DNA of 64,000 nucleotides from Chloroflexia bacterium (GTDB lineage: Bacteria > Chloroflexota > Chloroflexia > DTKN01): positions 238 to 64,237 of the forward strand of contig JBMFNL010000009.1 in NCBI GenBank assembly GCA_049970175.1, in the 5' to 3' direction. Shown piece after piece: positions 10,252 through 44,965 of the stretch (positions are counted from its first letter, which is position 1; each line of letters begins with the position of its first letter). Position numbers and translations under genes: made by a program. The notes beneath the pieces are model-generated. The model was not told the origin of the DNA, searched no databases, and worked only from the letters and a program-made list of their open reading frames with translations.

Positions 10252-11496
10252 ATGAGCGATTTCTATCGTTGGGAAAGCGGCCTTTCTCCAGAGGCGCGCC
10301 AGCCGCAGGGCGACGGCCACTGGGCCCGGAGGGTGGTGGTGGCGGCCGTCCTGGTCAGCCTGCTGGTGGGAGCGGTGGCCGGCTTCCTGGCCGGTGGAGC
10401 GGTGTCCTATGTGATGGCTCAGGTGGCGAGCGTTCGTCCGAGCCCGGTACAGGTGACCACCACGGGGGTATCCCCGATCACGCCGCCCACGGCCGAGCCG
10501 GCCCGGCCGGTCCTGCCCACGCCGCTGCCCGTTCCCCAGGAAGGTTCGCTGACGGTGGCCGAGGTGGTGCAGCGGGTGGGGCCGGCCGTGGTCACCGTGA
10601 TCAACAAGTTGCAGAGCCAGCCCAGCCCCTGGGGCTGGCCCCAGGAATCTCCCCAGGCCAGCGGATCCGGCGTCCTGGTGGACCCGCGCGGCTATATCGT
10701 GACCAACTACCACGTGGTCGAAGGTGCTGCCGAACTGACCGTGATCTTCCACGACGGGACCAGCCGGCCGGCCCGCCTCATCGGCCACGACTATCCCTTC
10801 AGCGATCTCGCCGTCATCCAGGTGGAAGGCGAGGGCTACCCCTACGCCGTCCTGGGCAACTCCGATGACCTCCTGGTGGGCGAGGCGGTCGTGGCCATCG
10901 GAAGCGCCCTGGGGGACTTTCGCAACACCGTCACCACCGGCGTGGTGAGCGGGGTCGGCCGCACCCTCAAGGTCTCCGAGGACGTTTCCATGGAGGGGAT
11001 GATCCAAACCGATGCGGCCATCAACCATGGCAACAGCGGCGGCCCCCTGGTCAACTTGCGCGGGGAGGTGATCGGCATCAACACGGCCATCATCCGCGGC
11101 AGCGCCCTTTCCGGGGACGTGGCCGAGGGGCTGGGCTTTGCCATCCCCAGCAACACCGTCCGCTACGTCGTCGAGCAACTGATCGCCCGGGGCAAGGTCG
11201 TCCGGCCGTATCTGGGGATTCGCTCCATCACGGTCAACCGCAGCCTGGCCGCCTACTACAATCTGCCGGTGGATCACGGGGTCTATGTGCGGGAGGTCAT
11301 CCCCGATACCCCGGCGGCACAGGCCGGCATCCGGCAGGGCGACATCATCACCGCCATCGGCGGCCTGACGATTGACGAGGACCATCCGCTCATCAACGTC
11401 CTGTCCCACTTTGAAACCGGGCAGCGGGTGCAGGTGGAACTCAACCGGGATGGACGGACGATGCAGGTGGAGGTAACGTTGGGCGAACGGCCCTGA
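10252..11496 (+). CDS. htrA: HtrA/DegP family serine protease with PDZ domain
   Basis: N-terminal TM; TNYHVV, DLAV, QTDAAINHGNSGGPL catalytic motifs; C-terminal PDZ. Confidence 0.92.
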   Translation: MSDFYRWESGLSPEARQPQGDGHWARRVVVAAVLVSLLVGAVAGFLAGGAVSYVMAQVASVRPSPVQVTTTGVSPITPPTAEPARPVLPTPLPVPQEGSLTVAEVVQRVGPAVVTVINKLQSQPSPWGWPQESPQASGSGVLVDPRGYIVTNYHVVEGAAELTVIFHDGTSRPARLIGHDYPFSDLAVIQVEGEGYPYAVLGNSDDLLVGEAVVAIGSALGDFRNTVTTGVVSGVGRTLKVSEDVSMEGMIQTDAAINHGNSGGPLVNLRGEVIGINTAIIRGSALSGDVAEGLGFAIPSNTVRYVVEQLIARGKVVRPYLGIRSITVNRSLAAYYNLPVDHGVYVREVIPDTPAAQAGIRQGDIITAIGGLTIDEDHPLINVLSHFETGQRVQVELNRDGRTMQVEVTLGERP

Positions 11497-16352: not shown

Positions 16353-18346
16353 GGCCGTTCCCCCTGTGCCCCGCCTGAGGCAGGGCTCTCCTCATCGCTC
16401 AGATACCGCCGGGCATCCGGGAAAAGCCGGCGCGGCGGCGGCATGGCAATCTCCCAACGACGCTGGCTCAGGAGGGAAAGTTGTCGGGACACCTCCTGAA
16501 CCAGTTCCCGATTTCCCTCCTCCTGGGCGTGAAGAAGCACTTCGGCATACTCCCGACGCTGACGCTCGTTGGCCAGGGCCTCCAGGCGCTGGAGGCAGTC
16601 CTGAAGGGCGCGGCGGGCCGTCTCCTCATCCAGGGAGAGTTCCGCCCGGAAGCGGGTCAGGAGGTCCTCCAGGTGGCGGCGCAGTTCGGCCTCGGCGGAG
16701 GTTTCGGGCGGGCCGGCCGGGAGCATCTCCAGCAAGGCGCGGTGCTCTTCCCGGCTCAGCAGCGCATCCACCCCGGCCGGAAGACTTGCCCACAGTTCCG
16801 GGAAGCGGTAGAGCAGGGCCAGGAAGTAGCCCTCGACCACTTCCTCCCGACGTGTCCCGGGCAGGAAGGCGAGCGTCAAGTCTTCCCCAGCAGGTGCGGA
16901 CGGCCGGGTCAGGGAACCCAGGGGCGAAGGCGGTGTCCCCGCGGCCTCGGCAGGGCGAGGGGCCGGCCGCACATTCCCTCTCCAGCGCCGCAGTTCCGCG
17001 GAAACGGCCCGCTCGTCCACCCGCAGGAGATGGGCCAGGCGCTGGACGTAGTGGGCCTGCTCAACCGGGTCGTGTACTTCGGCCAGGAGAGGAAGGGCCT
17101 GTTCTACGGCCTCCCGCTTGCCCCGGCCCGTCTCGAGGTCGGCCTCCTGGGCGAGGTTCTCCAGCACAAAGTCGAGCACCGGGAGGGCCTGGGCCAGGTG
17201 CGCCTCCCATTCGGACCGGTCGGTCCGGATGACCTCATCGGGGTCGCATCCGGCCGGCAGGACCACGATGCGTACCTCGCCGTCCAGTTCCCGCTCAAAG
17301 CGCACCAGGCCCTGCGCCGTGGGCACCGGGACCAGGCGCTCGTCCATGGCCTCGCGGATCACCTCCAGGCCGCGCCGGACCGAAAGCCGCCCGGCCTCGT
17401 CGGCATCCAGGGCCAGGTAGAGCCGCCGCGTCATACGCTTGAGCAGACGCACCTGGGCGGCGGTGAGGGAGGTGCCCATCGGGGCGACGACGTTTCGGTA
17501 GCCCTCCTGATGGGCCATCAGGACGTCGAAGTACCCTTCCACCAGGATGACATATCCCTCATGGCGGATGGCCGGGGCCGCCAGGTCCAGGCCGTAGAGG
17601 AGCGCCCCTTTGTCGAAGATCGGGCTTTGCGGCGAGTTCAGATATTTGGGCTGCTGGGTGTCATCCAGCGCCCGCCCGCCGAAGCCGACGACGTTTCCCT
17701 GGAGATCACGGATGGGGAAGATGAGGCGGTGGCGGAAACGGTCGTAGGAACCCTTGGGTTGAGTAGCCGAAGGCGTATCGAAACCCGTACCCCCCTCGCG
17801 CTCGACCACCAGGCCGGACGAGCGCAGTTCGGCTTCGCTGTAGCCGCGTTCGCGCAGGGCCGTGAAGAGGGCCTCCCAGCGATCGGGGGCATAGCCCAGG
17901 GCAAAGGCCTGCACCGTTTCCGCCCGGATGCCCCGTCGGTCCAGGTAGGCGCGGGCCGGAGCCCCTTCGGGGCCCTGGAGTTGCTCCTGGAAGAAACGGG
18001 CCGCATCGCGGTGAATGTCCAGGAGGCGCCGGCGCATCCGGTCGGCTTCCTGCTCCTGAGGGGTCGGTGGATGGAGCACCACTCCGGCCCGTCGGGCCAG
18101 GACGCCCAGCGCTTCGGAAAACTTCAGGCGGTCCATCTGCATGAGGAAGGTGAAGACGTCCCCGCCGGCCCCGCAGCCGAAGCAGTGGTAGTGCTGTGAC
18201 TCGGGAAAGACGAAAAAGGAGGGCGTGCGCTCCTGGTGAAAGGGGCAAAGGCCCTTGTAGTTGCGCCCGGCCTTTTTCAAGGGCACGCGCTCCCCGATCA
18301 CCTCGACGATGTCCAGTCGAGACTTGACTTCCTCGATGACGCTCAT
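16349..18346 (-). CDS. dnaG: DNA primase
   Basis: CPFH.E.TPSF...HCFGC zinc finger; DRFRHR; KYLNSP; VEGYFDV; [15 protein letters not shown]. Confidence 0.95.
17751..17785. repeat. REP-like palindromic element inside the dnaG coding sequence
   Basis: cccttgggttgagtagccgaaggcgtatcgaaacc closely matches intergenic copies at 19122-19154 and 39861-39898. Confidence 0.85.
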
Positions 18347-19081: not shown

Positions 19082-19154
19082 GGTCTCGACAGGCTCGACC
19101 CAAGGGTCTCGACAGGCTCCACCCTTGGGTTGAGTAGCGAAGCGTATCGAAACC
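19082..19154. repeat. REP-like cluster (2x GGTCTCGACAGGCTC plus GGTTGAGTAGCGAAGCGTATCGAAACC)
   Basis: Direct match to family motifs at other loci. Confidence 0.8.
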
Positions 19155-19247
19155 TCAACGTCGGCGTTCGATCCCCAACGCTGCTCCGGGATCCCCGCCC
19201 ACAACGCTTCGTCAGGCTCAGCGCACCGCCGTCTGACTCCCTTTCGC

Positions 19248-37081: not shown

Positions 37082-39642
37082 CTGATCTCCACCTCCCGGC
37101 TCCAGAAGGCGGCCAGGCGTTCGGCCAGGACGGCGTGCTCCGGCCGGCTGAGGTCGGGATCGGCGGCCAGGATGGCCTCGGCCTCCCGGCGAGCCAGGTC
37201 CAGGAGACGGGTATCGCCCAGCCGGGCCACCTTCAGGTCGGGCATGCCGCTCTGGCGGGTGCCGAAGAACTCGCCCGGCCCCCGCAGTTCCAGGTCAATT
37301 TCGGCCAGGGCGAAGCCGTCGTCCGTCTCCTCGATGGCCTTTAACCTCTCGCTTCCCAGTTCATCGGAGGTGGCCAGGAGGATGCAGTAGGAGGCATGTT
37401 CGCCCCGGCCGACGCGGCCGCGGAACTGGTGCAACTGGGCCAGGCCGAAACGCTCGGCCCCTTCGACCATCATGACGGTGGCGTTGGGTACGTCAATGCC
37501 CACCTCCACGACCGGCGTGGAGACGAGTACCTGGGTTTCGCCATCGCGGAAACGGCGCATGATGCGTTCTTTCTCCGCACCGGACATGCGTCCGTGGAGG
37601 AGGTCCAGTTTCAGGTCGGGGAAGACCTCTTCCTGGAGGCGGCGGAACTCTTCCACGGCGGCGGCGGCCTCGATCTTTTCCGATTCCTCCACCAGCGGGC
37701 AGATGATAAAGGCCTGTCGGCCCTGCTGCACCTGCTTGCGGATAAAGTCATAGGCCCGCTGGCGTTCGGCGTTGGCCAGCCACCGGGTGCGAATCTTCTG
37801 CCGGCCCGGGGGCATCTCGTCAATGATGGAGAGGTCCAGGTCGCCGTGCAGCGTTAGGGCCAGGGTGCGGGGGATGGGGGTCGCGGTCATCACCAGGAGG
37901 TGGGGGTTGTAGCCCTTCTGGTGGAGGGCCTGGCGCTGGAGCACGCCGAAGCGGTGCTGCTCGTCAATGATCACCAGGCCCAGGTTGGCGAAGGCGACGC
38001 CCTCCTGGATCAAAGCGTGGGTGCCCACGACGATGTCCACCCCGCCCTCGGCGATGGCGGCGCGGAGTTCGCGTTTTTCCCGTTCCTTCATGCTGCCGAT
38101 GAGGAGGGCCACCCGGGGCTCGCCCCCGGCCGGCCGTTCCTCCACGCCCAGGAGCGCCTTCAGTTCGGCCAGCCGCCGGGCCCGCTCCGGTTCCTCCTCC
38201 TTCCACTCCTCGCCGGAGGTGGAGGCGTAGCAAGCGCTGGGCCGGCCGGGCACCTCCAGGCCGGAAAGGAGCGCCCGGATGGTGCGCTCGTGCTGTTCGG
38301 CCAGAATCTCGGTGGGGGCCATCAGGGCCACCTGCCGGCCGTTGGCGACCGCCTGGAGCGCCGCCGCCGTCGCCACCACCGTCTTCCCCGAACCCACATC
38401 GCCCTGCAGAAGCCGGCTCATCGGCACATCCCGCTCCAGGTCGGCCAGGATTTCCCGGAGCGCCCGCTCCTGTGCCCCGGTGAGGGCAAAGGGGAGGCGC
38501 GCAAGAAAACGCTCCAGGAGGTCCCGGTCTAGGGGGAGCGGATGGCCGGGGCTGGCCTGCCATTCCCGCTTGCGCTGCAGGACGCCCAGTTGGATGTAGA
38601 GGAACTCGTCAAAGGCCAGGCGCCGGCGGGCCTGCCGGAGCGAATCCCAGTCGTCGGGGAAGTGAATCTGGCGCAGGGCCCGGCCGAGTTCCCAGAGGTC
38701 GGCCCGGAGACGCACCTCCGGCGGCAGCGGGTCGGGGACGCGGTCGGCCCACTGCTCCACGAAGCGTTTGATCAGCCGGCGGGTGCCCCGGGGGCGCATC
38801 TCCCCGCTCATCGGGTAGACCGGCACCAGCCGGCCGGTGTGCACCAGTTCGGCGTCGTAGGGCTCCCATTCGGGCGATTCCAGCGTCAGCCGGCCCCGAA
38901 ACTGCTCCACCCGCCCGCTCAGGACCACCTTCATCCCGGGCTTGAGCGACTTCAGGAGGTAGGGCTGGTTGAACCAGACCGCCTCGATGCTGCCGGTCTC
39001 GTCCCGCACGCGGGCCGAGATGAGGAGGCGGCCGCTCTGGGTGCGGCGCTGCTCCACCTCTTCGACGGTGGCGATGACCGTCTCGGTGGCCCCGTACATC
39101 AGGGCGTGAATCGGTTTGAGCGAGGTATAATCGTCGTAGCGCCGGGGAAAGTGGTAGAGGAGGTCGCGCACCGTCTGCAACCCCAGCCGCTTCAGTCCGC
39201 GCAGGTAGGTGCCGTAGATGCCGCCGGCCTTTTCCAGCGGCGTGTCCAGGGTCATCCCTTTGGGCGGCGAAGGGACGCGCCGGTGCGGGCGGGGTCGGGC
39301 CGGAGCAGGCACCGTAGGAGCGGCCGTCGTTTCCGGCGGCGGGCCGCTTCCGTCGCGCAGGGCCCGGTAGGTCTGGCGGAGGAGGGCCAGGGCCTGGCGC
39401 ACCCGGGCCTGGCGGGCCGAGAGGATGAGGTGGCGGTAGTTATCCAGGAGTTCGCCCAGGCGGGTCAGGAGGTCCGTGGGGAGGCCCAGGGGCTGGGCCT
39501 GGGCCTGCCACTGGCGGAAGTGGGCCTCCAGGCCGGCCGGCGCGGCCGTATCGGTGCAGCCGGCCCGCTCCTCCTCGGAAAGGAGCCGGCCCAGGGCGGC
39601 CAGGTGAGCCAACTGCCGATCTCGACGTTCCGGTTCCATCAT
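37078..39642 (-). CDS. recG: ATP-dependent DNA helicase RecG
   Basis: RLLQGDVGSGKT; MAPTEILAEQH; IIDEQHRFGV; MTATPIPRTL; FGLAQLHQFRGRVGRG; RGPGEFFGTRQSG. Confidence 0.95.
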   Translation of the reverse strand: MMEPERRDRQLAHLAALGRLLSEEERAGCTDTAAPAGLEAHFRQWQAQAQPLGLPTDLLTRLGELLDNYRHLILSARQARVRQALALLRQTYRALRDGSGPPPETTAAPTVPAPARPRPHRRVPSPPKGMTLDTPLEKAGGIYGTYLRGLKRLGLQTVRDLLYHFPRRYDDYTSLKPIHALMYGATETVIATVEEVEQRRTQSGRLLISARVRDETGSIEAVWFNQPYLLKSLKPGMKVVLSGRVEQFRGRLTLESPEWEPYDAELVHTGRLVPVYPMSGEMRPRGTRRLIKRFVEQWADRVPDPLPPEVRLRADLWELGRALRQIHFPDDWDSLRQARRRLAFDEFLYIQLGVLQRKREWQASPGHPLPLDRDLLERFLARLPFALTGAQERALREILADLERDVPMSRLLQGDVGSGKTVVATAAALQAVANGRQVALMAPTEILAEQHERTIRALLSGLEVPGRPSACYASTSGEEWKEEEPERARRLAELKALLGVEERPAGGEPRVALLIGSMKEREKRELRAAIAEGGVDIVVGTHALIQEGVAFANLGLVIIDEQHRFGVLQRQALHQKGYNPHLLVMTATPIPRTLALTLHGDLDLSIIDEMPPGRQKIRTRWLANAERQRAYDFIRKQVQQGRQAFIICPLVEESEKIEAAAAVEEFRRLQEEVFPDLKLDLLHGRMSGAEKERIMRRFRDGETQVLVSTPVVEVGIDVPNATVMMVEGAERFGLAQLHQFRGRVGRGEHASYCILLATSDELGSERLKAIEETDDGFALAEIDLELRGPGEFFGTRQSGMPDLKVARLGDTRLLDLARREAEAILAADPDLSRPEHAVLAERLAAFWSREVEIS

Positions 39643-39778
39643 CAGCCCCGAATTCCACCCGACAGGGTAGACATATTATACCACGAAACCGTCCGAGGCC
39701 CAAGTCGCAGATGGGTAGTGGATGCATGTTTCTAGATGGGCACTGTCCTCGAACACTGCGCACAGCGGGCTGTTCGCC

Positions 39779-40031
39779 GGTCGAGTAGGCCCGACTTGGG
39801 TCGAGTAGCCCCCGACTTGGGTTTCGACAGGCTCAACCCAGCGGGTCGAGTAGCGGCGACTTGGGTTGAGTAGCCCCCGAAGGGGGCGTATCGAAACCAG
39901 CCGCGTATCGAGACCAAGGGGCGTATCGAGACCAAGGGCCGTATCGAGACCCGGACAGCCCCGGCAACTGATTTCGATACGGCCGTCGCTGCGCTCCGGC
40001 CTACTTCACACGGGGCCTCGCCCAACTACAA
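39779..40031. repeat. Composite REP/BIME-like mosaic
   Basis: 3x GGTCGAGTAG..GACTTG; GTTTCGACAGGCTCAAC; a full element with CCCCC-GAA-GGGGG stem; 3x CGTATCGAGACC; a 63-bp element also found at 57093. Confidence 0.85.
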
Positions 40032-40068
40032 ACATGCATCCTGCGTAGTTTGAGGCGGAAACGGGCGG

Positions 40069-40097
40069 TTGACAGCAGTCCGGGGATGTGATAAGGT
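40069..40097 (+). promoter_or_regulatory. Sigma70 promoter upstream of the ClC gene
   Basis: TTGACA, 17 bp, TAAGGT with extended TG. Confidence 0.6.
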
Positions 40098-40282
40098 AAC
40101 GGGCGGTGACCGTAGGTTGGGCGGCAAGGTTCCCGAGCCAAAGGACCGCCCGGTACGATGGTTAGGCCAGGCCGGATCGGAAATTTCCCGTGTTCTAACG
40201 CCAGGATTCGCCCTCGGCGATTCTCTGAACGTCCACGGCAGGGGCCTGGATTTGCGCCGGCTCGCAACCTGGAGGGATAGGG

Positions 40283-42622
40283 ATGCCCGGTTCTGGAACG
40301 TCGGCGATGGATAACCGATGCACCGGCCCATTCCGGTCATGGCGTTTTCGCTATCGGGGAGTGCGCTTTGAGGCGGCCTTCCTGGGCGGCCTGGCCGCCC
40401 TGCTCGGGGCGGGGACGGCCCTGCTGGCCTATGTTTTCCATGTGTGCATCGAAAACGGGGTGACAGGCCGCGGCTTTACCATCGTCCTGCGGCTGGCAAC
40501 CGGGGCGCAGTGGACGGTGCCGCTCGGTTCGGACGGCATCTGGGCCTACCTCTTGGTGCTGGGGATTCCCGCGCTGGGCCTGTGTCTGGCCGCCGGCCTG
40601 ATGCGTCTCCTGGCGGGAGATGCTCCGGGCCACGGTGTGGCCGGGATCATGGAAGCCATGGCCCTGCGGGGAGGGAGGCTGCGCGTCCGGCCGGCCCTGG
40701 CCCGCGTCCTGGCCTCGATTTTGACCATCGCCTCCGGTGGTTCGGTCGGGCCGGAGGATCCCAACGTGCAGATCGGCGCCACGGTGGGCTCCTGGCTGGG
40801 CCAGCGCCTCCACCTTTCGACCGAACGTGTACAGACGCTGGTCGCCTGCGGCGCCGCCAGCGGCATCGCCGCCGCCTTCAACGCTCCCGTCGCCGGGGTC
40901 TTTTTCGCCCAGGAGATCATCCTGGGGGAGTTCACCGTCGGGGGGTTGAGCATGGTGGTCATCTCCACCGTGAGCGCCTCGGTGATCAGCCGCATCCTGC
41001 GCGGGGAAAGCCCGGCCTTCCTCATCCCCGAATACAGCCTCCGCTCTCCCTGGGAGGTCTTCCTCTATCTGGCGCTGGGCCTGCTGGCCGCCCTGGCCTC
41101 GGTCTTTTATGTACGGATTTTGTTGGCTATAGAGGAGATGCTTTCGCGCTGGAAGTCGCCCTTCCTGCTCCGAGCCGCCCTCGGCGGCCTGGCCGTGGGG
41201 GCCGTGGGGCTGGCCTTTCCCCAACTCTTTGGGGTCGGCTACGAGACGATGGATGCGCTCCTGCGGGGGGAGGAGGTGGCCACCGGAGTACTCCTGGCCC
41301 TCCTCCTGCTCAAACCGCTGCTCACGGCCACCACTTTGGGCAGCGGAGGTTCGGGCGGTGTCTTTGCCCCTTCCCTGTTCATCGGCAGCATGCTGGGCGG
41401 AGCCTTTGGCCAGGTCGTTCAGCGCCTCTTTCCCCAGGTTACGGCCCCGGCCCCGGCCTATGCGCTGGTGGGCATGGGAGCCGTCCTGGCCGGCGCCGTC
41501 CACTGCCCCATCACCGCCATCTTCCTCCTCTTTGAGATGACCCGGGACTATCACATCATCCTGCCGATCATGCTCTGCGCCGTGGTGAGCACCCTGGTCT
41601 CGCGCCGGCTGGCTCCCGGCTCGGTCTATACCGGCCGGTTGGCCCAGCGGGGAATCTACCTGCACCTGGGGCGAGACCTCAACGTGATGGAGATGGTCAC
41701 GGTGGAAGAGGCCATGAGCCGCGATTTCGATACCGCCCGCCCGGAGATGACCCTGGAGGAACTGGGCCGGCTCTTTGAGCAGAGCGCCCATCACGGCTTC
41801 CCGGTGGTGGATAGGGAGGGCCGGTTGCGGGGCATCGTGACCCTGACGGATTACCACCGGGCTCTGGAGGAGGGGAAGGGGCGCACGGTGGCCGACATCT
41901 GTACCGCCGATCCGCTGACCCTTTTCCCCGACCAGAGCCTGCACGAGGCCATGTGTCTCTTCTCGGCCCGGGATGTGGGGCGCATCCCGGTGGTCTCCCG
42001 GGAGGATCCCCGGCGCATCGTCGGCCTCCTGCGGCGCTACGACCTCATCCGGGCCTACAACAAGGGGCTGGCCCGGCGGGCGGAGATGGAACGGCGGATG
42101 CAGGAGATGCGCCTGGCCAGCCATCGCGGGGGAGAATTGCTGACGCTGGAACTGCCGGCCGGGGCGGCCGCCATCGGCTATGCCGTGCGCGACCTGCACC
42201 TACCCTTGGGCACGATCATCGTGGCCATCCAGCGCGGCGGCCGGGCGCTTATCCCCCGGGGCAATACCTCCCTCCAGGCGGGTGATTCGCTGATCCTGAT
42301 GGTGGACCGTCCCGAGACGGCCGGCCAGGTCCGGGCCCTGCTCCTGGAGGGGCGCGGGCTGCCCCGGGGCGAAGAGGTACGGCACGGCGAGTACATCCTG
42401 CCGGCCGCATCCCCGGCGGTGGGCAGGCGCATCGCCGAACTGGGATTGCCGGAAGGCTGCCTGGTGCTGGAGGTGCAGCGCGGCGACCGCCTGCTCATCC
42501 CCCACGGCGACACCGTCCTGCAGGCCGGCGACCGGCTGCTCGTGGCCGCCGCGGCCGAGGAGTTGCCGGCCGTGGAGCGCTTCCTGCTTCCCCAAGGGCG
42601 GAATCCGGAGGCCGCTGGATGA
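40283..42622 (+). CDS. ClC family chloride channel/antiporter with 2 CBS and 2 TrkA-C (RCK_C) domains
   Basis: GHGV; GGSVGPEDP.VQIG; AAAFNAPVAG; GGVFAPSLFIG; CBS GFPVVD; two LELP...IVAIQRG..LIP.G.T.LQAGD units. Confidence 0.88.
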   Translation: MPGSGTSAMDNRCTGPFRSWRFRYRGVRFEAAFLGGLAALLGAGTALLAYVFHVCIENGVTGRGFTIVLRLATGAQWTVPLGSDGIWAYLLVLGIPALGLCLAAGLMRLLAGDAPGHGVAGIMEAMALRGGRLRVRPALARVLASILTIASGGSVGPEDPNVQIGATVGSWLGQRLHLSTERVQTLVACGAASGIAAAFNAPVAGVFFAQEIILGEFTVGGLSMVVISTVSASVISRILRGESPAFLIPEYSLRSPWEVFLYLALGLLAALASVFYVRILLAIEEMLSRWKSPFLLRAALGGLAVGAVGLAFPQLFGVGYETMDALLRGEEVATGVLLALLLLKPLLTATTLGSGGSGGVFAPSLFIGSMLGGAFGQVVQRLFPQVTAPAPAYALVGMGAVLAGAVHCPITAIFLLFEMTRDYHIILPIMLCAVVSTLVSRRLAPGSVYTGRLAQRGIYLHLGRDLNVMEMVTVEEAMSRDFDTARPEMTLEELGRLFEQSAHHGFPVVDREGRLRGIVTLTDYHRALEEGKGRTVADICTADPLTLFPDQSLHEAMCLFSARDVGRIPVVSREDPRRIVGLLRRYDLIRAYNKGLARRAEMERRMQEMRLASHRGGELLTLELPAGAAAIGYAVRDLHLPLGTIIVAIQRGGRALIPRGNTSLQAGDSLILMVDRPETAGQVRALLLEGRGLPRGEEVRHGEYILPAASPAVGRRIAELGLPEGCLVLEVQRGDRLLIPHGDTVLQAGDRLLVAAAAEELPAVERFLLPQGRNPEAAG

Positions 42623-42679: not shown

Positions 42680-44965
42680 TCATGCCCCGGACCGGCGGCG
42701 ATGGGGGGCCCGACGGGTGTTCCTGCACTCCGGATAGCCGGAGCAGGCCAGGAAGGGGCCGTAGCGCCCCCGGCGTAGCACCATCGGCCGGCCGCACTTT
42801 TCGTAGACCTCGGAGGTCTCTTCCCCGGCCTCATTCCCTCCGGGAGGCAAAGGGCGGGTGTTGCGGCAGGCCGGGTAGTTGGTGCAGGCCAGGAACGGCC
42901 CGTACCTCCCGCGCTTCACCGCCATCGGGCTGCCGCACTTTTCGCACGGGGCGGGTTGGAAATCTTCCCCTACTTCCACCGCCGGCCTCTCCGCCGGCAC
43001 CACCTTCCCCTCGGGCGTCCGGGCGAAATCCCGGGCGTTTTTGCACTCCGGATAGCCCGAGCAAGAAAGAAACGCCCCGTTTTTCCCCCAGCGGATGACC
43101 ATCGGCCGGCCGCAGAGTTCGCAGAGGATATCGGTCGGCTCGGCCTCCCTCCGGACATCCCGCATCTCGGCCTCGGCCCGGGCCAGTTCCGCCAAAAGGT
43201 GGCGGTGAAATTCCTCCAGCACCGGTACCCGCGAGAGCGTCCCGGCGGCGATTTTGTCCAGGCGCTCCTCCATCTGCGAGGTAAAGTTGTAATCCAGGAT
43301 GTCGGGAAAGTGGGCCACCAGGAGGTCGTTCACCAGAAAGCCCAGTTCCGTCGGGCGCAGGGGGGAGTTGCGTTTGCGGGCCTCCACCCGTTCGACATAG
43401 CCCCGCTCCCGAATCGTCTCCATAATCGGGGCGTAGGTGGAGGGCCGGCCGATGCCGCGCTTCTCCAGTTCCCGAATCAGGGTGGCCTCGGTGTAACGCG
43501 GCGGCGGCGAGGTCCAGTGTTGCAGGGCCAGGAGTTGCACTAGGTCCAGAATCTCGCCTTCGGAAAGAGGCGGCAGGAACTTTTCTCCGGCCGAGGGGCC
43601 GCCCTCTTCCTCCCGATAGACGACCAGGAAGCCGGGGAAGCGGACGACCGATCCGGTGGCCCGAAAGAGGTAGCCCTCTCCCTCCTCTTCCCCAGCCCAG
43701 AGGGGAGGACGGGCCAGAATCTCGGCGGTCGTCTGCTCCAGAATTGCCGGGGACATCTGGCTCGCCAGAAAACGCCTCCAGACGAGTTCGTAGAGGCGGA
43801 ACTGGTCCCGATCCAGGAAGCGGCGAATCGCCTCCGGTTCCCGGTAGACCGAGGTGGGGCGGATGGCTTCGTGGGCCTCCTGGGCCAGGGCCACCTTCGT
43901 TTTGTAGATGGGCGGCCTTTCCGGCAGGTATGCGGTCCCCCACTTCCCGGCGATGAAGGAGCGGGCCTCCTCCTGGGCCAGCGGGGAGACGGCGGTGGAG
44001 TCGGTGCGGATGTAGGTGATGAGGCCGACGGAGCCCTCCTCCCCCAGTTCGACGCCTTCGTAGAGTTGCTGAGCAATGCGCATCGTGCGTCCCGGGGCCA
44101 TGCCCAGGCGGCGCGAGGCCTCCTGCTGAAGCGTGCTGGTCGTGAAGGGCGGGAGCGGCCGGCGCCGCACCTCTTTCTTCCGCACTGTCCACACCCGGTA
44201 GGTCGCTCCCTCCAGTTCGTCCACGATGGCCTGGGCCTCTTCCTTGGTCTTCAGGTCGAAGCGGCCCAACTTCGTTTCGACAGGCTCAACGCACCGCCTC
44301 CCACGGACGCCGACCAGGACGGCTCGGAAGACCTCTTCCGGCCGGCGCTCCTCCCCCGGCGGCGGGATTTTGGCCAGGTCCGCCTCCACCGTCCAGTACT
44401 CCTGGGGCTGGAAAGCGGCGATCTCGCGCTCGCGTTCCACGACCAGCCGCACGGCCACCGATTGCACCCGGCCGGCCGAGAGTCCCCGACGGACCTTTTT
44501 CCAGAGGAGCGGGCTGATCTGGTAGCCGACCAGCCGGTCCAGGATGCGCCGGGCCTGCTGCGCATCTACCAGGTGCATATCCAGACCCCGGGGATGCTGA
44601 AAGGCCTCCCGGATGGCCGGCGGCGTGACCTCGTGAAAGACCACCCGATGGACCGGTTTGCCTTCGGGATGGGTCACCTGGATGATGTGCCAGGCGATGG
44701 CCTCGCCCTCCCGGTCGGGGTCGGTGGCCAGGTAGACCTCGGCCGCCTGTTCCACGGCCCTGCGCAGTTCGCGGACCACCTTGGACTTGGCCCGGGGCAC
44801 CGTGTAGGTGGGGACGAAGCCGGCCTCGACATCTACCCCCAACCGGCTCTTGGGCAGGTCCCGCACATGGCCCATCGAGGCCTCGACCGCATATCCGCCC
44901 CCCAGGACCTGGCGGATGGTGCGTGCCTTGGCCGGAGATTCGACGATGACCAGTTTCCCTGTCAT
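42680..44965 (-). CDS. topA: DNA topoisomerase I with C-terminal zinc ribbons
   Basis: KLVIVESPAKA; ASMGHVRDL; LATDPDREGEAI; SAGRVQS; ITYIRTDS; GRPSTYA; 3x C/Y..C...M....G.YG.FL.C..YP.C; true start ATG 44965. Confidence 0.95.
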   Translation of the reverse strand: MTGKLVIVESPAKARTIRQVLGGGYAVEASMGHVRDLPKSRLGVDVEAGFVPTYTVPRAKSKVVRELRRAVEQAAEVYLATDPDREGEAIAWHIIQVTHPEGKPVHRVVFHEVTPPAIREAFQHPRGLDMHLVDAQQARRILDRLVGYQISPLLWKKVRRGLSAGRVQSVAVRLVVEREREIAAFQPQEYWTVEADLAKIPPPGEERRPEEVFRAVLVGVRGRRCVEPVETKLGRFDLKTKEEAQAIVDELEGATYRVWTVRKKEVRRRPLPPFTTSTLQQEASRRLGMAPGRTMRIAQQLYEGVELGEEGSVGLITYIRTDSTAVSPLAQEEARSFIAGKWGTAYLPERPPIYKTKVALAQEAHEAIRPTSVYREPEAIRRFLDRDQFRLYELVWRRFLASQMSPAILEQTTAEILARPPLWAGEEEGEGYLFRATGSVVRFPGFLVVYREEEGGPSAGEKFLPPLSEGEILDLVQLLALQHWTSPPPRYTEATLIRELEKRGIGRPSTYAPIMETIRERGYVERVEARKRNSPLRPTELGFLVNDLLVAHFPDILDYNFTSQMEERLDKIAAGTLSRVPVLEEFHRHLLAELARAEAEMRDVRREAEPTDILCELCGRPMVIRWGKNGAFLSCSGYPECKNARDFARTPEGKVVPAERPAVEVGEDFQPAPCEKCGSPMAVKRGRYGPFLACTNYPACRNTRPLPPGGNEAGEETSEVYEKCGRPMVLRRGRYGPFLACSGYPECRNTRRAPHRRRSGA
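44274..44290. repeat. REP-like 17-mer inside the topA coding sequence
   Basis: GTTTCGACAGGCTCAAC is identical to 39821-39837. Confidence 0.75.

Follow-up and report, generated by a model that had tools for sequence, protein, structure and literature searches.

How did a piece of repeat DNA come to lie, in frame, inside the DNA topoisomerase I gene (topA) of a hot-spring Chloroflexia bacterium? The gene is located in a stretch of 64,000 nucleotides (nt; hereafter, the window), which spans positions 238-64237 of contig C9 in a metagenome-assembled genome (MAG) of 3.08 Mb, 145 contigs, and 66% G+C (genome code G000). The 17-mer GTTTCGACAGGCTCAAC was matched exactly at window positions 39821-39837 and 44274-44290, both on the plus strand. 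Its minus-strand reading, GTT GAG CCT GTC GAA AC, encodes VEPVET inside ...VGVRGRRCVEPVETKLGRFD... of a 761-amino-acid (aa) protein, and an earlier reading of the letters alone (hereafter, the original prediction) was correct about both the shared word and the peptide. Based on its Pfam domains (Toprim, Topoisom_bac, and three topoisomerase Zn-ribbons) the protein is TopA, and its open reading frame (ORF) was the sole topA match in the G000 genome. Comparison with related genomes makes it very likely that one 24-nt unit of a repeat scattered through G000, and private to that genome, entered topA after the split from the sequenced congeners. The features at this locus are as follows.

42683-44965 (42680-44965 with the stop codon), minus strand: topA (DNA topoisomerase I), 761 aa plus stop, start MTGKLVIVESPAKA, assigned from domain matches.
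44274-44297, plus strand: the 24-nt module GTTTCGACAGGCTCAACGCACCGC, antisense to topA, delimited by a 24-nt gap in the DNA of G001 and G002.
44270-44273, plus strand: the 5' flank CTTC, an instance of the C-N-N-C found before solo copies of the module, read as a target-site preference.

The TopA proteins of 22 genomes from the genus, family, and class (this one and 21 relatives) were aligned. Only the G000 protein had eight extra residues between VRG and KLGRF, and the corresponding 8-residue gap was detected in all 21 relatives, within the 6-10 aa that had been predicted. The aligned relatives and the closest database proteins read G-K/E/Q-K/R-L at the same turn, where a short G-K-K-type turn had been expected. 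In a search of 5.8 billion proteins, the insert was absent from the 16 closest ones (five at 83-89% identity and eleven more distant), and the named relatives among the database proteins were Chloroflexia MAGs and Kallotenue. Orthologs that share the peptide in the absence of the DNA motif, a case raised against the prediction, were not seen, as no ortholog had the peptide.

The boundaries of the insert were resolved by the two same-genus genomes, G001 and G002, whose TopA proteins are 86-89% identical to that of G000 and read VRGKKLGRF or IGGKKLGRF. In both of them the DNA alignment had a gap of exactly 24 nt. The most economical parsing would be an ancestral GGG AGG AAG, one transition from the GGG AAG AAG/A of the congeners, into which GCGGTGCGTTGAGCCTGTCGAAAC (the reverse complement of GTTTCGACAGGCTCAACGCACCGC) was inserted. 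The alignments thus show a putative ancestral GGG-A(A/G)G-AAG (G-K/R-K) turn converted to G-R-[RCVEPVET]-K. On the coding strand the insert reads G CGG TGC GTT GAG CCT GTC GAA AC, that is, R-C-V-E-P-V-E-T at TopA residues ~224-231, with ends that are ambiguous by 1 nt because there is a C on either side. The topA module was 24/24 identical to copies at C7:29992, C7:43139, C22:15797, C63:10940, and C134:1585. The match of topA to the repeat covers exactly the 24 nt missing from the congeners, so the repeat unit and the indel are equal in length and ends (within 1 nt).

The copy number in the genome leaves no room for the coincidence that had been named as the other objection to the prediction. 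The 17-mer had 31 exact matches in G000 (46 at ≤1 mismatch), against an expectation of ~2e-4 exact matches by our own arithmetic from base composition. In the window there were five matches at ≤3 mismatches (0.11 expected), while a single exact pair in 64 kb would on its own be only weakly significant. A 23-nt pattern of the unit, at ≤2 mismatches, was detected 25 times in G000 and not once in 30 relatives, including both congeners. At ≤1 mismatch, 11 copies were found in G000, and two of 400 other sampled genomes of the phylum had one copy each, one of which was again preceded by C-C-T-C. The burst therefore appears to be private to G000 and recent, given its absence from congeners with 86-89% identical TopA. 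The palindromic element of the original prediction is in this sense a recent hairpin repeat, and "active" can be kept only with the meaning of recent and absent from congeners.

Most G000 copies are in intergenic mosaic arrays together with other modules. Only 4 of 43 exact cores were deep inside confident genes, and such genes make up 78% of the genome (P ~2e-21). This strong depletion indicates that the genic copies are rare survivors and that there is selection against them.

The AlphaFold2 model of TopA, based on the 22-sequence alignment, had a mean pLDDT (predicted local distance difference test) of 80. Residues 226-234 were modelled as coil with values <50; a strand (212-220) and a helix (241-251), both confidently modelled, lie on either side. 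A gap opened at the insert position in HMMER alignments to the solved TopA structures 6ozw and 4rul. In terms of the E. coli enzyme, this position corresponds to a domain II turn that lies away from the tyrosine of the active site. The active-site motif GLITY(I/M)RTDS was intact, and since no second topA was found in a genome that is 95% complete, the gene is almost certainly a functional one. A length that is a multiple of three, a stop-free frame, a loop position, and the lack of a second topA together point to a tolerated passenger. No RNA run containing the topA gene was found in the run search. Elsewhere in the same protein, residues ~719-726 (window ~42770-42790, the last zinc ribbon) read EVYEKCGR, compared with EVCE.CGR in the aligned same-genus and same-family relatives; the C-terminal zinc ribbon thus has tyrosine in place of its first cysteine.

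Two other genes, predicted with our own gene caller (used for genes outside the window; it recovered topA correctly), had the same unit in equally clean form. An ECF-type double ABC ATPase (C8) was eight residues longer (PERCIEPVET) in its inter-domain linker, with a 24-nt DNA gap at this site in both congeners. A UbiB/ABC1-like kinase (C4) had the module in sense orientation, read as FRQAQCTA, and an exact 8-aa gap in G001, G002, G003, and G006. For the kinase the empty site in G002 was perfect (GCCGCCAC^CTGTCC, compared with GCCGCCAC-ATTTCGACAGGCTCAATGCACCGC-CTGTCC in G000), without target duplication and with unaltered flanks. The ABC ATPase linker and the UbiB-like kinase show at least two further clean in-frame 24-nt insertions that are, as judged from the genomes compared, found in G000 only, and the coding colonisation proposed in the original prediction holds for them as well. 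In its other example, dnaG, said to carry the same repeat, the insert (window 17751-17785) is a different module, GTTTCGATACG...CTACTCAAC, which occurs in the same arrays as the 24-nt unit.

Two further genic loci are recorded here as observations. The gene at C21:15297-16061 (locus L052) reads its copy as AVHRACRD, in the frame usually interrupted by TGA; the T-to-C change that removes the stop also creates the compensatory stem variant CATC/GATG. The dnaX-like homologues of five same-family genomes (L040-L044) had one in-frame TAG/TAA in the C-terminal part of the match, with none in G000 and G001; this may be a gamma/tau-type truncation or simply the gene ends.

Why, then, does one reading frame dominate? 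The unit is exactly eight codons long, so the reading frame is never shifted, and it is open in five of the six frames. The six antisense genic copies all read (E/R)R(C/R)(I/V/T)EPVE(M/T). One of the three antisense frames of the unit contains TGA, and the sites that serve as targets for antisense insertion (R^GNNG when read on the coding strand) are distributed unevenly over the three codon phases.

TGA stop frame phase: 73,496 sites.
GALSLSK frame phase: 21,658 sites.
RCIEPVE frame phase: 60,916 sites.

This skew arises because third codon positions are 85% G+C. The expected share of RCIEPVE among viable antisense insertions is 74%, and six of six has P ~0.16. The target motif, the G+C periodicity of third positions, and the TGA frame together account for the preponderance of one frame, and a function of the peptide is not needed. 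We accordingly rejected the peptide-function reading of the shared frame, as the target-phase bias suffices.

The 24-nt unit consists of C-R-Y-Y, a conserved 11-nt loop (TCGACAGGCTC), R-R-Y-G (which closes a 4-bp stem), and a CACCGC tail. The stem was analysed at 99 loci matching the loop at ≤1 mismatch, with shuffled partners as the control. The four loop-flanking positions paired far more often than the shuffled partners and switched between Watson-Crick types, as shown by two of the pairs.

Stem pair 3: GC 51, AT 14; pairing observed 0.77, shuffled 0.59.
Stem pair 4: GC 46, CG 23; pairing observed 0.73, shuffled 0.45.

The stems of solo copies varied accordingly: CGTT/AACG in topA, CATT/AATG in the UbiB gene and at C16, C17, and C35, CGCT/AGCG at window 19206 and C134, and CATC/GATG at C21. 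Solo copies were located directly 3' of C-N-N-C (C at -4 in 13 of 13 examined and C at -1 in 12 of 13), and the copies were mostly followed by a pyrimidine. C-N-N-C is already present in the empty UbiB site of the congeners, so it reflects the choice of target and does not belong to the element. CCGC, with which the unit itself ends on the 3' side, also fits C-N-N-C. Such a target-like end would allow tandem copies, as a copy could then insert beside an existing one; two units were indeed found head to tail at one locus, C63 (C63:10940-10987). The genic and other solo copies in G000 are single units, not inverted doublets.

The loop was more widespread than the unit. The 13-nt loop core had 43 exact matches in G000, 49 in G025, 29 in G015, 12 in G005, and 6 in G020, with 0-3 in the other genomes. 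In G015 and G025 it belonged to hairpins with quite different stems, often in inverted pairs 30-36 nt apart. A conserved loop with a free stem and a patchy spread is what one expects of a selfish hairpin recognised by a protein. A full-text literature search with the loop sequence and its complement returned unrelated primer matches only.

We consider an enzyme-driven mobile-element model to be reasonably likely. The unit would be a non-autonomous mini-element moved in trans by a sequence- and structure-specific enzyme, which would insert it site-selectively 3' of C-N-N-C without target duplication. A single-strand "peel-and-paste" reaction, of the type known for the insertion sequence (IS) family IS200/IS605 and for the transposases associated with repetitive extragenic palindromes (REPs), called RAYTs (HUH Y1 enzymes), would fit better than transposition of the kind used by MITEs (miniature transposable elements with inverted repeats). 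The fit lies in the hairpin, the lack of target duplication and of terminal inverted repeats, the insertion 3' of a motif, and the target-like CCGC end. An HUH-type mechanism in particular is nevertheless a tentative and rather doubtful assignment. The account as a whole, namely the topA insertion, a mini-element moved by an enzyme, and an anatomy like that of HUH substrates, is in our view probable.

The search for the enzyme gave one lead. A RAYT-like segment on C71 has an HUH-like HVHVL and a YxxNP motif. It occupies ~10695-11140 of the ORF at C71:9849-13376 (L121), is low in G+C, and reads RNLPHW...YFITWR...HVHVL...YIRTNP. The segment lacks a start codon of its own, and its open frame continues on either side into a DUF1156-like DNA methylase ORF. 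Palindromes of the GGCACAGG type bracket the segment, and from its sequence the locus gives the impression of a host gene that took up a complete transposase domain in frame. The RAYT-like segment, apparently a recent acquisition, is present in G000, and neither congener was found to have it in this form. Each of the five genomes rich in the loop core had weak RAYT-like matches, as did 3 of the other 26; these represent ~3 independent lineages without physical linkage, and the co-occurrence with the loop core is a lead only. Other candidates were rejected. The only GIY-YIG match in G000 lies in a 612-aa, UvrC-sized frame, and small GIY-YIG genes in the relatives do not track the loop-core counts. 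No transposase, and hence no IS parent, was found beside the CTAAAG-tailed copies, the longer copies, or the arrays examined.

It is conceivable, if on present evidence improbable, that the 24-nt unit is a self-sufficient transposition substrate moved seamlessly to C-N-N-C^Y by an HUH-type enzyme in trans, with the C71 RAYT-like segment as the candidate. Were this so, the unit, whose 24 nt comprise one hairpin and a 6-nt tail, would be among the smallest mobile DNA elements described, and a species-specific burst of coding insertions would be tied to a single acquisition event.

Several observations weigh against the account of an enzyme-moved insertion. Both topA flanks are one base off the congeners, and the ancestral empty site was deduced rather than seen. 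As single-stranded DNA the hairpin has a folding energy of ~-2 kcal/mol, no better than that of shuffled sequences, so the structure is deduced solely from covariation and would presumably count only in a protein-bound state. No mobilising gene was found, and the sole PF01797 (Y1_Tnp) match in G000 is the weak RAYT-like segment on C71 (24.4 bits). No TTCGACAGGCTCA copy (≤2 mismatches) was detected within ~1-1.5 kb of the RAYT-like loci of G000, G005, G015, and G025. The assembly is a draft MAG in 145 contigs and our gene calls are crude. For the genic copies in a dnaX-like linker and in a methylase N-terminus, the alignments gave no clean 24-nt insertion, and neither copy was counted as an event.

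The main rival is template switching or templated repair, by which 24 nt would have been copied from the intergenic arrays via a few bases of microhomology and without a transposase; we regard it as unlikely. It would agree with the lack of any transposase associated with the element at the loci examined and with the head-to-tail unit in arrays such as that at C63. The array copies are also preceded by CCGC or CTAC, which resembles the C-N-N-C of solo sites, as microhomology would give. Template switching, however, usually gives variable end points and predicts no identical ends in three events, while at least three independent events had identical 24-nt ends, one of them seamless at a perfect empty site. 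The microhomology would amount to two fixed bases only, and the compensatory stem changes point to selection on a structure that is recognised during spread.

Much less probable is that the insert is functional, with selection on the eight residues (Cys, acidic) or on an RNA or DNA hairpin, for example as a regulatory or metal-binding tag or an mRNA element. Six genic copies in one frame, the position of all of these in loops, linkers, or termini, and the persistence in an essential single-copy gene could be taken in its favour. Against this, the frame bias is explained by target phase and the stop filter, most copies are intergenic, and the copies are near-identical in DNA including synonymous positions, with UbiB using another frame (FRQAQCTA). 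The peptide was found in no relative, and the TopA region was modelled as a disordered loop. Least credible of all is an ancestral segment lost in the relatives, or an artefact of assembly or binning, although the MAG has 145 contigs and only one sample clearly holds the sequence. Loss would be needed independently in every other lineage of the class; G000 also has multiple copies of a repeat identical to the segment, and the segment lies in frame in a conserved single-copy gene. A second assembler reproduced it: a Logan contig from a hot-spring metagenome run spans 44080-44357 with one substitution, no gap, and a depth of ~9. This separate assembly, probably from the source sample, excludes an artefact of MAG assembly and is not independent biological support.

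Insertion of such a repeat into coding sequence has its closest parallel in the Rickettsia palindromic elements (RPEs), which, in the summary given in PMC10969869 of Ogata et al. 2000, comprise ten families of ~100-150 bp found in frame in ORFs. As with RPEs, a dispersed palindromic repeat lies in frame in unrelated genes including housekeeping ones, the peptide is at permissive sites, and the host protein presumably functions. In functional terms the topA case is an RPE phenomenon, in which housekeeping genes tolerate an in-frame palindromic repeat of a selfish kind (PMC10969869). The unit differs in its size (24 nt or 8 codons, ~five times smaller), its unrelated sequence, its thermophilic Chloroflexia MAG host, its seamless ends, and its defined target. 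RPEs are in ORFs far more often, whereas the 24-nt unit is strongly depleted from genes.

The original prediction had called the repeat a REP, a name that can be kept as a loose label only. Like REPs and REPINs (REP doublets), the unit is a short, high-copy, mostly extragenic hairpin with a compensatory stem, lineage bursts, a patchy distribution, and a RAYT-like gene in the genome. It differs in having no GTAG/CTAC tag, a weak 4-bp stem around an 11-nt loop, and singlets in place of inverted doublets. The unit starts C-RYY-TCGACAGGCTC and its 5' flank is C-N-N-C with variable middle bases, not GTAG. REP/RAYT membership was rejected on the absence of the GTAG tag, of the REPIN doublet, and of copies flanking the RAYT.

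In its lack of target-site duplication and terminal inverted repeats, its hairpin, its oriented insertion 3' of a short motif, and its target-like 3' end, the unit resembles IS200/IS605 elements and their non-autonomous derivatives, the palindrome-associated transposable elements (PATEs). Those elements are hundreds of bases in length, with subterminal hairpins of two different kinds; here, both ends would have to come from a single 24-nt unit of hairpin and tail. Apart from the weak RAYT-like match, the assembly yielded no IS200/IS605 TnpA. In-frame fusions are also described for bacterial MITEs, including Coxiella QMITE, ERIC, and Correia/NEMIS (PMC5896051, PMC2229807, PMC10969869). The unit is likewise a small non-autonomous repeat between and within genes that sometimes extends ORFs in frame, but MITEs have terminal inverted repeats, target-site duplications, and an identifiable IS parent, and none of the three was found for it.

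In-frame repeat insertion is therefore known from other bacteria, and what is new here is an unusually small and precise element in Chloroflexia. The case indicates that an essential single-copy informational gene of a free-living thermophile can absorb the insertion of a selfish repeat. It is an unusually clean example, with filled and empty sites among congeners, exact boundaries, no target duplication, and a defined target motif, which makes the insertion mechanism directly testable. With its eight codons and near lack of stops, such a repeat also lends itself as a model of how short repeats give conserved proteins loop insertions confined to one lineage. Annotators who meet short peptides such as ERCIEPVEM or FRQAQCTA in several unrelated proteins should read them as derived from a repeat, not as motifs.

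The remaining copies and companion modules in the window are located in intergenic DNA or in mosaic arrays.

39760-39960, plus strand: intergenic mosaic repeat array with the 17-mer copy at 39821-39837 (GGGTT/AACCC stem), among GTCGAGTAGCCCCCGACTTGG and CGTATCGAGACC modules.
39700-39790, minus strand: conserved unit of ~65 nt (CTCGACCGGCGAAC...AAACATGCATCC) that closes such arrays.
19206-19229, plus strand: intergenic solo 24-nt copy with a compensatory stem (C-GCT TCGTCAGGCTC AGC-G, then CACCGC), preceded by CAAC.
19083-19122, plus strand: a tandem pair of related hairpins, GTCTCGACAGGCTC(G/C)AC, that differ from the 17-mer at 2 positions and belong to an intergenic array.
17751-17785, plus strand: companion module (reverse complement GGGTTTCGATACGCCTTCGGCTACTCAACCCAAGGG), a distinct unit of the same mosaic arrays, assigned by reading its letters.

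The GTTTCGATACG...CTACTCAAC hairpin module co-occurs with the 24-nt unit in the intergenic mosaic arrays of G000. Rfam gave no match, either across the whole window with gathering thresholds or, at E≤1, within 39300-40400, so the array is not a described RNA family. The ~65-nt unit at the array ends (CTCGACCGGCGAACRGCCCGCTGTGCGCAGTGTTCGAGGACAGTGCCCATCTAGAAACATGCATCC) holds a CGAACA/TGTTCG inverted repeat and recurs at at least 12 other loci of the genome. Its position, 10-30 nt upstream of promoters resembling TTGAC-N17-TATAAT, suggests a role close to the promoter, either regulatory or insulating. A CTAAAG-tailed hairpin variant (GTTTCGACAGGCTCAACCTAAAG) forms 23-nt tandem runs at C121:2576-2644, C137:94-139, C3:69328, C38:16783, C38:17151, and C44:27097. 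The intergenic mosaics around these copies (GGATGCCCACCGGGGCCGGCCG..., CACGGATGAACACGGATACACGGATG...) are long and multi-copy and cause breaks in the assembly.

The genome has a further abundant palindrome. The octamer GGCCGGCC was counted 4255 times, where base composition predicts ~454, and is a HIP1-like highly iterated palindrome; other G+C octamer palindromes were at or below expectation, for example GCGGCCGC (356) and GGCGCGCC (203).

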